This document shows positions 51,336 through 60,269 of a DNA stretch of 64,000 nucleotides, one piece after another. Position 1 is the stretch's first letter. Each line of letters begins with the position of its first letter. The DNA is from an uncultured Ignavibacteriaceae bacterium. Lineage in GTDB: Bacteria > Bacteroidota > Ignavibacteria > UBA10030. The DNA lies in assembly GCA_964651225.1 (NCBI GenBank), contig CAZYYD010000003.1:51533-115532 (forward strand). Direction: 5' to 3'. The notes under the pieces are model-generated. The model made no database searches. It was not told where the DNA came from and saw only the letters and a list, made by a program, of their open reading frames with translations. The position numbers were made by a program, and so were the translations under genes.

Positions 51336-51480
51336 ATTGAACAGATTGTCAAATTGCGCAGGGAATGGATCAAGAAGGCTCATGATACAGGCAGGATTGA
51401 ATTCTATTCAAAGCATTTGACTTTCCCCTTGCAGAAAGAAGGAATACTGAGTACCATTTTCCGTCGGCAGGGATTTACTA
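51336..51480 (+). other. attC-like junction upstream of the GNAT cassette (degenerate)
   Basis: ATTGAAC (51336-51342) is followed by a GCGCAGG..GATCAA module shared with junctions 60750 and 62118. The 3' end ..TTTTCCGTCGGCAGGGATTTACTA has TTACT complementary to GAGTAAC at 52029. Confidence 0.3.
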
Positions 51481-52105: not shown

Positions 52106-52772
52106 AGCGGAAGCTTCCAGCTGACAATCCCCTTCCTGCCAAGAACTGGCTAGACTAGCTTCAATTCAAAGCATTCGACATACTACTTGCGAATAGATGG
52201 AAAACTGAGTACCATTTTGCCATCGGCAAACATGCATCAGAAGGAGGCACTGACGGATGCATGGGCGGGGAGATTGTCAATATTTTAGATAACTCACTCC
52301 AACAGACAAAAACAAAATAAACGACATCCCGCAAAAAGCACGGGACAAGTTATGTCATCTATCCACCTAATTTTGATGGATATACGACATGGTTCAGAAT
52401 TGCAGTAGTTATGCAAGATGTGCGAGAGGAAGAGAGAATCAGTTGAACAAGAACGTCGTGGTGCTGTGCACCACGGCGAGCGAGCAGACATCAAAAAAAG
52501 GGGGAATTGGATAGAGGTTCTTGGATTGAGCAAAGCGTCGGTTGGAAGTGAGTGACCATGCATTTCATAGTATGAGTTTGTGGTCACACACGAACAAGAA
52601 GATGCTTTGCTCAACACCAAAAAGTTTTTTTTGTTCCCGTTTTTTTTGCTGCATTCCCGCAAAGACGGCGGGACTGACTCGCACTGACATTCTTGTGTTG
52701 TTAGACAGACTATGAGAAGATTGATGGTGACGTTGACTGAATGGAAACTGGTGGATCATTCTCGCCCACCTC

Positions 52773-52907
52773 GCATAACAGTCGGCAACACGGCGCTCAT
52801 TCTATGATATGGTAGTAGTATTGTATTCGCTCCATTGTTTTGTTCACTATTGAAAAAAATCATTTATAGTTCACAAAACAACAGCGTGTAGCCGACATAC
52901 GTTATGC
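52773..52907 (+). other. attC site candidate (135 bp)
   Basis: R'' GCATAAC (52773-52779) is a perfect complement of R' GTTATGC (52901-52907). Inner arms GTCGGCAACACG (52781-52792) and CGTGTAGCCGAC (52885-52896) pair at 11/12 positions. Confidence 0.7.
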
Positions 52908-52940
52908 GCAGGCCAGTGGCGAACTAAAATTAACCCCGAG

Positions 52941-54101
52941 GTGAGTGTGAATCCTCTGTTTCTTTTGAGTGGAATTGGAATGATTGTCGTCGCAATAGCG
53001 GCGGTGATGTATTGGAAGAAGTACTCAGGCGTTCTGTGGTCGTTCTTTTTCTGGGGTGCTCTCGCGTGGATAGTCGGAGTGACTCTCAAGGCAGGGGCTT
53101 CTATTCCAACACCAACCATAATTAACCAAGTTCGTAATGTTTTGCCTCGCACTTTTGCAGAACCCGTGCTTTGGATATACATAGGTCTGTTGACAGGAAT
53201 CTTCGAGTGTGGGGCAACACTCGGATTTGCATACATCCAGAAAATCCGAAAGGCGAATTGGAATCAATCAGTTGGATTTGGTGTAGGATTCGGAGCTGTA
53301 GAAGCTCTTCTCGTAGGGGTTGGCTCTTTGCTTATGATGGTGGTGGTCATTTATATTCCCGACAAACTTCCGCCAGAGTTTCTGAAGTTCATAACATCAG
53401 GCAATTCGTTGTGGTGCATTCCTGTTCCGATTATTGAGAGGGTTATTACTATCCCAATACATGCATTATCATGTGTACTTATCATATACGCAGTACAGAA
53501 ACAAGAATGGAAATGCTTCTACCTCTCATTTGCTTACAAGACTGTTGTAGATGCAATAGCCGGATTCATCCACATCTCATACGGATTGGAGAACCTCACA
53601 ACTCTCAGCACATGGGGCATGGAGCTTGTTTTCCTTCCTTTCGGCATTATTGGTGTTCTGGGGTTGTACGCATTTCGCAATAAATGGAAACAGTTAGGCA
53701 TGGAGACTACTTTTAGTACGCCAAAAGTCAAATTGCTGTTTTGGTGGATGGGGTCAATTTGCCTTCTCCTGATTATCCCCATCAAGGCAATCCGTTGGGA
53801 ACATTTGAGCGTGGCAACAACCATATTTGTCGGCATCGCTCCAAGCCTCTTAGGTCCCGCGGGTTTGTTGTTCCTCATTTTATCGAGTTCCGGCAAACTT
53901 TCACGCCTGACACTGGTTCAAATCACTTTATTCGTAACCGCAATTGCCCTCGGGCTCGAATTTGTTCAGCTTATTCCTCGACCGGGAATTCTGGCGAGGG
54001 TGCATTACACTTTTGATTGGCTTGACATTCTCGCAAGCATACTCAGTGTGTGTGCTGGCTACGTCACCGCTTTCATCATGACGAAAAAGAAATTACTGTA
54101 G
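52941..54101 (+). CDS. polytopic membrane protein; N-terminal half YhfC-like, C-terminal part VanZ-like (tentative)
   Basis: GTG start after GAGGTG. Motifs GIFECGAT, GFGAVEALLVG and ERVITIPIHALS recall YhfC intramembrane proteases. The C-terminus has LEFVQLIP..DWLDILASILS. Confidence 0.6.
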   Translation: MSVNPLFLLSGIGMIVVAIAAVMYWKKYSGVLWSFFFWGALAWIVGVTLKAGASIPTPTIINQVRNVLPRTFAEPVLWIYIGLLTGIFECGATLGFAYIQKIRKANWNQSVGFGVGFGAVEALLVGVGSLLMMVVVIYIPDKLPPEFLKFITSGNSLWCIPVPIIERVITIPIHALSCVLIIYAVQKQEWKCFYLSFAYKTVVDAIAGFIHISYGLENLTTLSTWGMELVFLPFGIIGVLGLYAFRNKWKQLGMETTFSTPKVKLLFWWMGSICLLLIIPIKAIRWEHLSVATTIFVGIAPSLLGPAGLLFLILSSSGKLSRLTLVQITLFVTAIALGLEFVQLIPRPGILARVHYTFDWLDILASILSVCAGYVTAFIMTKKKLL

Positions 54102-54131
54102 ACAAATGCAGCACCAAGGCCACTGGCCTGC

Positions 54132-54321
54132 GCATAACAAACGGCACCACGACGCTCACACATTTGGATAGGTCGAGAAGGAGCGAGAGTTATGCGTGAT
54201 GAAAAGTGTTCGCTCCACGCCGTGTGCGAGCCGAGAAATTGGTAATCGTCATTCATAGCTTTTTCAATCGTATCATTCGCAATCGCGCACACGGCGCGGC
54301 GTGGTGCCTGAAACGTTAGGC
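54132..54321 (+). other. attC site candidate (190 bp)
   Basis: R'' GCATAAC (54132-54138), spacer AAAC and GGCACCACGACGC (54143-54155). The latter pairs at 12/13 positions with GCGGCGTGGTGCC (54296-54308), followed by TGAAAC and R' GTTAGGC (54315-54321). Confidence 0.65.
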
Positions 54322-54421
54322 GCAAGCGAAGATTCCTTTGATAGTGCGTTTTGCGGCACCGCTGTTCACTTGGTAGCGGCACTTTTTTCTGCATTCAACG
54401 AGGCATCCTTCGGCCACAAGC

Positions 54422-54886
54422 ATGGATACGATTCACCTAAAATGGTTCAGACTTATGCTGCTCGTTGCAGGTTTGTACCTCATCGTTGGCTTTGGATTCG
54501 CCGAGCTTGGCAAGAATGCTCCATCAATTCAAATCCAGCGTTTCTGGAGGCTCGCGGCCTGGGCAGTCAGTTTCGTCGCATACTTAGCTCACATCTGGTA
54601 CGAACACTTTAGGTTTCACAACACGGCTCGTACAACGGCGCTTCATACATCTTTACCAGCAGCAATTGCATCATTTGGACTGGCAGTTGGTGCCAATATT
54701 CACGCACAGTTCGTCATCTCGCCTAATCCGACGATGCTTGCACTATCCCTTGTGTTGTGGCCCGCTCTAACAATGGTGCCAGCATTTGGGAGTCGCTTTC
54801 ATCCTTGCTTCCGGTCTGGCCCAATGGTGGAAGAAGAGTTAGCTCAGATGACGAAGGTTCTGTGCCGCAAACCGCGAAATCAATAG
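54422..54886 (+). CDS. hypothetical membrane protein
   Basis: 154 aa with four hydrophobic helices. No family recognised. Confidence 0.55.
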   Translation: MDTIHLKWFRLMLLVAGLYLIVGFGFAELGKNAPSIQIQRFWRLAAWAVSFVAYLAHIWYEHFRFHNTARTTALHTSLPAAIASFGLAVGANIHAQFVISPNPTMLALSLVLWPALTMVPAFGSRFHPCFRSGPMVEEELAQMTKVLCRKPRNQ

Positions 54887-54898
54887 AACTTTGCCTGC

Positions 54899-55127
54899 GG
54901 CTAACAAACGGCAAACCGGCGCCTGTCTGCCGTCAGGCAGGCCTGCCCGCCGGCAGGCGGGCTCGCACACTGGATAGGCGATGTTGAAACAGAGTTTGGC
55001 TAGATGTAAAGTGCTTCCGCCAAAAGGTGAAGCACGGCGGACAGGCGCTCCATTGCTCGCCGCCGAAGCAATGAATGATCAGATCGATATCGGCGGCTCG
55101 CAACGACGTGTTGCCTAAACGTTAGCT
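54899..55127 (+). other. attC site candidate (229 bp)
   Basis: R'' GGCTAAC (54899-54905), spacer AAAC and GGCAAACCGGCG (54910-54921). The latter pairs at 9/12 positions with CGACGTGTTGCC (55104-55115), followed by TAAAC and R' GTTAGCT (55121-55127). Confidence 0.6.
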
Positions 55128-55160: not shown

Positions 55161-55814
55161 ATGAGATGTAACAAGTGTTCGGTTCGAGCGATACTATCTC
55201 TTGCCATTTGGTTTATCGCACTTTCTTCCAACGGGTTCGCTCAGTCAATATCGATACGTGTCGCAGCGGGGATTGTAGACCTCCCACTATCTGATTGGTC
55301 AAAGTTCTTCGGATCGCAAGGGAACTCTTCTTATCCACTTTATTCCCAGAATAATCCCAACCCGTACTATGCTTTATCAATTCACTACGACATCAATTCG
55401 CACCATTCGGTCTATATTGGTACGGAACTTATTCAGACATCTGCTTCATCGAGCGATTCCGTTGAGATCGTCGATTGGAAATTCCAGGGTATTCCAATAA
55501 CTGTCGGTTATGAATACAAGTCGTTAAGAATCAACCAATATTTTACTCCAGTTATTGGCGGTGGAGTGTCATACTTCATAAGCCAAGTGGTTGCGAGGGA
55601 CCATTTCTTCAATCAAACTCTCAAACGTACTGGGAATGGCTATGGAATTCATGCATCCCTTGGATTAATATCACAATTGACTCAATCACTTTGCATGATT
55701 ACGCAAGCCCGTTATCGCTATTCTAATGGCATGGCTTTCAGCGGAAACAGGGATGACATTAAGGTCGAGTTCTCGGGATTTGATATTAGCATTGGACTGG
55801 AATATTCCTTATGA
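55161..55814 (+). CDS. outer-membrane beta-barrel-like protein
   Basis: GGAGG precedes the ATG. The product has a signal peptide and an alternating amphipathic strand pattern (..YYALSIHYDI.., ..GISIGLEYSL). Confidence 0.6.
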   Translation: MRCNKCSVRAILSLAIWFIALSSNGFAQSISIRVAAGIVDLPLSDWSKFFGSQGNSSYPLYSQNNPNPYYALSIHYDINSHHSVYIGTELIQTSASSSDSVEIVDWKFQGIPITVGYEYKSLRINQYFTPVIGGGVSYFISQVVARDHFFNQTLKRTGNGYGIHASLGLISQLTQSLCMITQARYRYSNGMAFSGNRDDIKVEFSGFDISIGLEYSL

Positions 55815-59038: not shown

Positions 59039-59081
59039 GACGAGCAGCACCTCCTCCACTTCGCTGCAACAGGTACGCTCG

Positions 59082-59155
59082 CTTCACTTCGTTTGCCTCA
59101 GAGAACATGAAAAATTATATTGTGGAAAAAGGAACGGCATTGTTTTCACATACGG
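59082..59155 (+). repeat. 74-nt junction repeat, copy 1
   Basis: 65/74 nt are identical to 60196-60269 (CTTCAYTWCGTTTGCCTCAGAGAACATGAAAAATTAT...AACGGCATTGTTTTCRCATACGG). Confidence 0.8.
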
Positions 59156-60121: not shown

Positions 60122-60195
60122 AGCAAATATAACGTTATAGAATGATCTAATCATTTATAGGTATGATCGCAAAACAACTTTTGGATAAACACCTG

Positions 60196-60269
60196 CTTCA
60201 TTACGTTTGCCTCAGAGAACATGAAAAATTATTCTGTGTCAAATAGAACGGCATTGTTTTCGCATACGG
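60196..60269 (+). repeat. 74-nt junction repeat, copy 2
   Basis: See 59082-59155. It lies between ATATAAC (60129-60135) and GTTGTAT (60319-60325). Confidence 0.8.

Follow-up and report, generated by a model that had tools for sequence, protein, structure and literature searches.

A conserved arm in an order-wide attC family, apparently of Ignavibacteriales, predicted to fold as a three-way junction

Introduction

Among the closest described counterparts of the sites reported here are the Vibrio cholerae repeats (VCR), which are branched, conserved and lineage-specific attC sites with a large branched terminal structure (PMC2727003). Canonical attC sites carry extrahelical bases on their R''-L'' arm (PMC2727003), and taxon-specific covariance models have established that attC sequence and structure are kept within a taxon and can serve to mark it (Ghaly et al. 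2021, PMC8352920). The 11 taxa modelled in that work comprise six gammaproteobacterial orders together with Acidobacteria, Cyanobacteria, Deltaproteobacteria, Planctomycetes and Spirochaetes (PMC8352920), and the IntegronFinder paper merely notes that integrons exist in Ignavibacteriae (PMC9024848). Here we describe attC sites from a cassette array of an uncultured Ignavibacteriaceae bacterium, located in a stretch of 64,000 nucleotides (assembly GCA_964651225.1, contig CAZYYD010000003.1, positions 51,533 to 115,532 of the forward strand) that we refer to, at its full length, as the window.

Textbook attC sites range from 57 to 141 bp. An original prediction had pointed to three unusually long candidates in the window, and had proposed that a motif shared by them could be an accessory-protein site, an internal promoter or a structured RNA. 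As reported below, the motif lies within a conserved arm, here called the M arm, of an attC family characteristic of the host's order, and a single strand of the site is predicted to fold into a three-way junction of L stem, M arm and terminal (V) arm.

Results

Three attC sites in the window

The covariance model R1 (156 positions, 35 pairs), which was built on 39 clean aligned copies from other genomes with an RNAalifold-guided structure, matched the following sites:

52773..52907, + strand: attC site 1, 135 nt; R'' GCATAAC (52773-52779), R' GTTATGC (52901-52907); R1 full-model match, 61.5 bits
54132..54321, + strand: attC site 2, 190 nt; R'' GCATAAC, R' GTTAGGC; full-length R1 match, 94.6 bits
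54899..55127, + strand: attC site 3, 229 nt; R''/R' GGCTAAC/GTTAGCT; family consensus plus two insertions; full-length R1 match, 98.2 bits

These matches fall on the very coordinates, and hence the lengths of 135, 190 and 229, that had been predicted. Instead of short canonical attC sites elsewhere in the junctions, R1, which is a family-specific model and not IntegronFinder's generic one, returned the predicted boundaries. Inverted core sites, R'' (..AAC) and R' (GTT..), are present at the two ends of all three sites, and TAAC and GTTA are almost invariant among 115 distinct copies of the family. A strict RYYYAAC expression for attC gave no match, as the R'' boxes here read GCATAAC. Moreover, a perfect 20-nt inverted repeat joins 52901-52920 to 54119-54138, so that the R' end of site 1 pairs with the R'' end of site 2; such a repeat across one cassette is expected of a circularisable cassette and thus lends independent support to the cassette boundaries. 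The bottom-strand folds of sites 1, 2 and 3 had energies of -26.1, -32.5 and -54.5 kcal/mol, with z = -5.5, -1.6 and -4.2, respectively. Judged from their sequence, the three window sites are genuine integron attC sites that belong to one lineage-specific family.

The motif and the M arm

Over the 115 distinct copies, site length is tightly centred on a mode of 156 nt, with a range of 107-242. The family consensus reads:

GCCTAAC AAAC GGCAAACCG GC GC-TC-GCAC [ACTGGATAGGCGAAGTTGAAACAAAGTTTGGCTAAATGTAAA] GTGC-TC-GC T CC-A-TTGC-TC-GCCGCCAC [loop] GTGGCGGC-TC-GCAA-C-GG CGGTTTGCC TAAAC GTTAGGC

At its ends, R'' (GCcTAAC) is followed by the spacer AAAC, and R' (GTTAGGC) is preceded by TAAAC. The M arm (GC-TC-GCAC, ~42 nt, GTGC-TC-GC) is followed by one linker base and then by the V arm (CC-A-TTGC-TC-GCCGCC, loop, GGCGGC-TC-GCAA-C-GG). 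Conservation peaks at the junction words GCGCTCGC and GTGCTCGCTCCA, whose columns surpass those of the R and L boxes and all others in the site. Conserved columns within the M interior are CTGGATAGGC (32-41), C52, TTGGCT (58-63) and TnnAAAG (67-73), and columns 44-57 come in two main haplotypes, GTTGAAAC and GGAAGTTC. We rejected a loop inversion as the relation between these haplotypes, as 8 of 16 positions match. Lower-scoring sites of the same arrays keep the flanking words, with M interiors of 21-64 nt.

On this alignment the motif of the original prediction is the interior of the conserved M arm. The extra length of the window sites had been called non-random and ascribed to a conserved module within the site, and this is borne out, the module being the M-arm interior of the whole family. 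The module had also been assigned to the variable loop; it is indeed conserved, but it forms a fixed arm of the family with constant position and orientation, and its closing helix shows compensatory changes. Likewise, the motif had been taken as common to the three long sites, of which sites 2 and 3 do carry the TGGATAGG-type arm, but site 1 has a short, divergent one, although it keeps the flanking words. The word GCTCACACATTTGGATAGGTCGA begins at 54154 and not, as first given, at 54155. The second half of the motif, AGAGTTnnGCnnGATGnAAAGTG, lies at 54186-54208 and 54991-55013, i.e., two matches in the window against 0.08 expected from shuffles. Far from being common genome-wide, the combined two-part motif occurs only twice in the 4.24-Mb genome, both times in these sites, a result matched by an nhmmer profile of the arm. 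By itself the 8-mer TGGATAGG shows no excess: the genome has 55 copies, where a simple uniform model would give ~130. The "related words" listed at 52507, 60181 and 60831 had to be dropped, as neither the covariance model nor the arm profile matches there.

Two further identities for the arm were rejected. An autonomous miniature mobile element, akin to miniature inverted-repeat transposable elements (MITEs) or repetitive extragenic palindromes (REPs), does not fit an arm that a genome scan and nhmmer found solely inside attC, at one position and in one orientation; separate CCGCC...GGCGG mini-hairpins, unlike the M arm, do sit at variable positions. Coding sequence on either strand was dismissed because the variable positions ignore codon wobble and stops are present. 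The minus-strand open reading frames (ORFs) at 54059-54394 and 54933-55103 have no Pfam match.

Distribution

Matches to R1 were found in 117 of 277 genomes of the host's order, covering 69 of its 110 genera. In a phylum-wide sample, 19 of 401 genomes carried the family, 18 of them from the host's order and one other from the same class. A pattern scan of the genomes of 185,579 species returned 32 stretches, nearly all from metagenome-assembled genomes labelled Ignavibacteriales, Ignavibacteriota, Ignavibacteriae or unclassified "Bacteroidetes/Bacteroidota bacterium"; three of the 32 were evident chance matches without attC context. When the 190-nt site was compared with 60 relatives by BLAST, several genomes of the host's family and order gave matches that span the motif. 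This pattern describes a taxon-specific attC family across one order, apparently Ignavibacteriales.

The three-way junction

The three-way junction was predicted independently by RNAalifold on a MAFFT alignment. Its L stem has 9 bp (positions 12-20 with 136-144), is 92.8% paired and shows both-sided changes in 8 of its 9 pairs, and the spacers AAAC and TAAAC between the R and L boxes are not complementary, leaving an unpaired central spacer. The M-arm base helix joins positions 23, 24 and 27-30 to 73-76, 79 and 80, and the V-arm helix joins positions 82, 83, 85-88 and 91-98 to 119-126, 129-132, 134 and 135. The consensus L stem is predicted to lack bulged bases; on the R''-L'' side pairing first stops at G21-C22, in the junction, and the M arm comes next.

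Across the 115 distinct copies, 90.8% of cells at the modelled pairs were paired, compared with 81.5% in shuffles, and the covariation score was 0.258 against 0.107 in shuffles (0 of 500 shuffles as high; all slid controls ≤0.055), in an alignment (A3) that was fitted to R1 and so favours the modelled pairs; independent MAFFT-based counts and MAFFT/RNAalifold agree. Individual pairs illustrate the exchanges. Pair 29-74 of the M arm reads A-T in 77 copies against T-A in 17. At pair 27-76, 102 copies have G-C and 5 have A-T, and these 5 include the 190-nt site of the window, whose M arm has an A-T closing pair in place of the family's G-C. Pair 83-134 changes from C-G (102 copies) to A-T in 7, and in those 7 the competing pair 22-134 is broken, which suggests that the V arm stacks directly on the L stem and that the M arm is a side branch on the R''-L'' side. 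All three helices are thus supported by compensatory changes. In these copies the V arm is free to vary, with compensation; that it drifts in this way while the junction words are the most conserved part of the site points to a sequence-level constraint on the M arm.

The 29-74 exchange bears on one of the proposed functions, an internal promoter driving the downstream cassette. The top strand of site 3, and of the family consensus, contains a promoter-like match, and the tRNA genes of the host are preceded by TTGnnn-17-TATATT promoters:

54984..55012, + strand: sigma-70-like match TTGAAA-17-TAAAGT, within the M arm of site 3; 9/12 positions

However, the last "-10" base is T74, which covaries with A29, changing from T to A with its pairing partner, and conservation within the M arm is lowest where the -35 lies. 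Hexamers at this fixed spacing are not conserved: they are present in 34 of 114 distinct copies (30%) and absent from the 190-nt site. Such matches number 5 in a 2.7-kb region, where shuffles give 3.1 +/- 1.7. We therefore rejected a sigma-70 promoter as the cause of M-arm conservation, given the few copies, the weak -35 conservation and the covarying "-10" T, and consider it highly improbable that driving the next cassette is what the arm is for; in some copies TTGAAA-17-TAAAGT may still fire.

Each arm can also be lost. A 107-nt site in a genome of the same genus (L117:1501-1607, genome G006) has lost its entire V arm, leaving the M arm as the sole terminal structure, and the site at L041:9019-9165 has lost the M interior. 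Both deletions end at direct GCTCGC words.

Lengths of the window sites

The odd lengths of the three sites are due to a shortened M arm in site 1, a long V loop in site 2 and two mini-hairpin insertions in site 3:

52793..52834, + strand: short M-arm variant of site 1; GCGCTCA, 26-nt interior, then TTCGCTCCA; read from the sequence and extracted with a regular expression
54154..54213, + strand: M arm of site 2; base helix GC-TC-ACAC / GTGT-TC-GC, interior with TTGGATAGG ... AGAGTTATGCGTGATGAAAAG
54922..54961, + strand: G+C-rich 40-nt hairpin insertion of site 3, between L'' arm and M arm; palindrome, an insert in the R1 alignment
54962..55015, + strand: M arm of site 3, 5' part; CTCGCACAC TGGATAGGCGATGTTGAAACAGAGTTTGGCTAGATGTAAAGTG CT
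55016..55045, + strand: 30-nt mini-hairpin insertion of site 3; TCCGCC-AAAAGGTGAAGCAC-GGCGGACAGG; splits the 3' strand of the M-arm base helix (R1 alignment)

In site 2 the M arm is of normal size and the V-arm loop measures 52 nt, against 19 in the model (R1 alignment). The 40-nt insertion of site 3 is a double hairpin, CCTGTCTGCC-GTCA-GGCAGG followed by GCCCGCC-GGCA-GGCGGGC, and a similar block is found in another genome (L109).

The 30-nt mini-hairpin of site 3, CCGCC-ARAAGRTGRNGCAY-GGCGG with a conserved loop, recurs in attC sites of different genomes (L015, L047, L059, L060, L071, L072, L075 and L109). Its insertion point varies, lying after L'', within the 3' strand of the M base helix or within the V arm; its orientation is constant across attC sites, and some sites hold tandem copies. 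A second type of hairpin, CCTGTCTGCC-GWCA-GGCAGG, accompanies it. In these respects the mini-hairpins behave like tiny hairpin elements that colonise attC sites. Outside any attC, an intergenic region of another contig of the genome (C5, ~95.86-96.61 kb; L126:3860-4608) holds three hairpin repeats of ~85 nt, GGTGTCAGGAGT..CCGCC-ATGGGTCATCTTTT-GGCGG..ACTTCCTGACAC, the tip of which is the reverse complement of the attC mini-hairpin; an Rfam search gave no match for these repeats.

Cassette array and integrases

Three + strand ORFs, each with an imperfect palindrome before or after it, begin 34-101 nt after an R' box:

52941..54101, + strand: cassette ORF, 386 aa; YhfC-like intramembrane metalloprotease domain (Pfam PF10086, E = 3e-23)
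54422..54886, + strand: cassette ORF, 154 aa; no family match
55161..55814, + strand: next ORF, 217 aa; weak outer-membrane beta-barrel match (Pfam PF13505, E = 4e-4), below the curated cut-off

Elsewhere in the genome, contigs C72 and C18 each hold an integron integrase that scores above the TIGR02249 cut-off (443.9 and 422.5 bits, respectively), and an ORF and Pfam scan of the window from 47 to 64 kb found no integrase. As both integrases lie on other contigs and do not adjoin the array, the latter is of the CALIN type (a cluster of attC sites lacking an adjacent integrase). Both integrases are of ordinary length, ~319 aa from their likely starts, with no added DNA-binding or arm-binding domain. 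Their genes (C72:10818-11759 and C18:84499-85437) lie ~100-800 bp from contig ends, and the assembler probably broke the cassette arrays of both at repeated attC sites.

Further small attC clusters are present in the same genome, at C3:6051-6185 (near-identical to window site 1) and C3:7336-7473, both on the contig of the window but outside it, and at C10:1683-5250. Other repeats were noted around the array. A 75-nt direct repeat, 88% identical, occupies two consecutive junctions between unrelated ORFs (59081-59155 and 60195-60269) and has no match to the attC model; a 74-nt direct repeat, 76% identical (51387-51460 and 52145-52218), flanks a GNAT gene upstream of attC site 1. The short palindrome GTCGTGGTGCTGTGCACCACGGC at 52440-52480 shows 88% complementarity over 17 nt to the L'' arm of site 2 and may be a remnant of an inverted attC arm.

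Discussion

We infer that the M arm is part of the recombination substrate and not a separate gene-expression element, and regard an attC family endowed with such an arm, with moderate confidence, as the best overall explanation of our findings. The arm would present a large one-sided asymmetry on the very side where canonical sites carry extrahelical bases, namely a conserved G in L'' and a T 6-8 nt beyond it. It is the bottom strand that recombines in integron attC sites, and all conserved non-Watson-Crick positions would be more favourable on that strand: the two TC.TC loops would become tandem G.A, and A84.C133 would become T.G. Tandem G.A and T.G are stabilising by established DNA chemistry. 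Counted per helix, the asymmetry between G.T and A.C was uninformative, except for the fixed A84.C133. Together with the junction, the arm might help to determine the productively folding strand and the orientation of integrase assembly, and its conserved interior (TGGATAGGC, C52, TTGGCT, TAAAG) could serve as a contact surface or as a deliberately unpaired loop. A bolder version, in which the M arm of this order replaces the classical extrahelical bases and, with the invariant junction, determines strand choice and orientation or docks a lineage-specific accessory factor, strikes us as doubtful. If it were true, integron integrases would read attC polarity in a different way.

Several results count against a role of the arm in recombination. 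The bottom strand has no clear energy advantage, with a mean of -30.1 kcal/mol versus -30.8 for the top strand over 112 copies (nearest-neighbour DNA parameters), and the consensus junction likewise shows no clear strand difference (-28.4 bottom, -27.6 top); folding energy was accordingly discarded as an indicator of strand preference. In isolation the M arm is marginally stable, from -2.6 (bottom) to -5.5 (top) kcal/mol. A candidate inner M-arm helix (37-43 with 58-64, and others) is ~84% paired but shows little compensation, and at its two G.T positions the top strand is favoured. No array of the family tied to an adjacent integrase was found, because the integrase genes lie at contig ends or have no neighbouring sites. 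Finally, when the branched terminal structure of VCR was replaced, recombination changed less than 2.5-fold and strand choice was unaffected (PMC2727003); with that structure nearly dispensable, a recombination role of the M arm is not guaranteed.

The inner helix also bears on the reading as a structured or functional RNA, one in which the arm, within the top-strand transcript of the array, affects the stability, processing or translation of the next cassette. At pair 42-59 of this helix, 69 copies have G.T and 29 have A-T, an exchange that the top strand tolerates, the arm folds better on that strand (by the energies just given), and AAGGAG precedes an ATG by 8 nt inside the arm of site 2. 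Yet compensatory changes give the inner helix no support, the family does not keep the ATG-TAA and Shine-Dalgarno-like words, and in RNA the TC.TC loops and the A.C mismatch, all conserved, would weaken the fold. Rfam 15 returned no match at gathering score over the window and no relevant match at E up to 5 over 50-64 kb. A function as RNA is thus very unlikely.

The VCR result also speaks for neutral heritage, i.e., for an M arm that is a relic of the origin or copying of cassettes or attC sites, such as a duplication of the V arm between the four GCTCGC words, and that has no function of its own. Both arms have the GC-TC-GC base design, the four GCTCGC words are in direct orientation, the V arm of L117 was lost exactly between such words, and the loss of the M interior in L041 fits as well. 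A neutral passenger would not be expected to show stronger conservation than the R and L boxes at its junction words and at several interior columns over 69 genera while the V arm drifts under compensation. We hold neutral heritage to be unlikely on this account.

The same sequence-level conservation, with little covariation inside the M arm, would suit a binding site for an accessory protein. A host factor or extra integrase subunits would bind TGGATAGGC and TTGGCTA, whose GGC triplets are 21 nt apart with the invariant C52 between them, as duplex or single-stranded DNA; the top-strand C residues at 32, 41, 52 and 62 are spaced by about one helical turn. No known motif fits convincingly, however: by eye, against consensus sequences, DnaA and IHF matches reach 6/9 or worse, and sigma-54 and Bacteroidetes-type (TAnnTTTG) motifs were rejected in the same way. 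Nor do the two integrases, at ~319 aa, carry an additional domain for binding the arm, and the same arrays hold sub-families whose interiors differ greatly. Such a binding site therefore seems to us a decidedly unlikely explanation, and we return to the M arm as part of the recombination substrate as our favoured one.

How does the family compare with described systems? As in canonical attC sites (59-base elements, e.g., that of aadA7), it has R''/R' cores of the form ..AAC/GTT.., L''/L' pairing and an unpaired central spacer (4 x 5 nt), and it shares with the attC sites of mobile integrons its place at the 3' end of co-oriented cassette ORFs and the complementarity of cassette ends. Unlike canonical sites, it is 2-3 times longer, has a three-way junction in place of a simple hairpin as its predicted fold, and its interior sequence is strongly conserved. 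As the 156-nt norm exceeds the textbook range and insertion-bearing copies reach 229-242 nt, the length limits of cassette finders could miss such sites. The conserved blocks beside the core site also recall the accessory sites of tyrosine recombinases, such as the direct repeats DR1 and DR2 of attI1, which are accessory binding sites of this kind; the analogy, which serves the boldest reading, is one of function only, and the integrases here have no extra domain.

The phenomenon is the same as in the published taxon-specific models (PMC8352920), none of whose 11 taxa covers Ignavibacteria or Bacteroidota. R1 thereby adds a covariance model of this kind for a group that they leave out, and would let environmental cassettes be assigned to Ignavibacteriales. 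In comparison with VCR and other homogeneous attC families of sedentary chromosomal integrons, the Ignavibacteriales family is longer (mode 156 nt, up to 242), and whereas VCR belong to the array of one species, it spans an order (69 genera). Its branch is a one-sided arm predicted directly above the 9-bp L stem, with invariant TC.TC loops in both arms; it has no predicted bulged extrahelical base in the L stem, and no sequence relation to VCR beyond TAACAAACG. With an arm conserved above the R and L boxes across so many genera, it offers a test case for why the interiors of chromosomal attC sites are conserved. What sets it apart from the known systems is its length, its order-wide spread, an arm on one side that is more conserved than the core boxes and, possibly, the absence of classical extrahelical bases.

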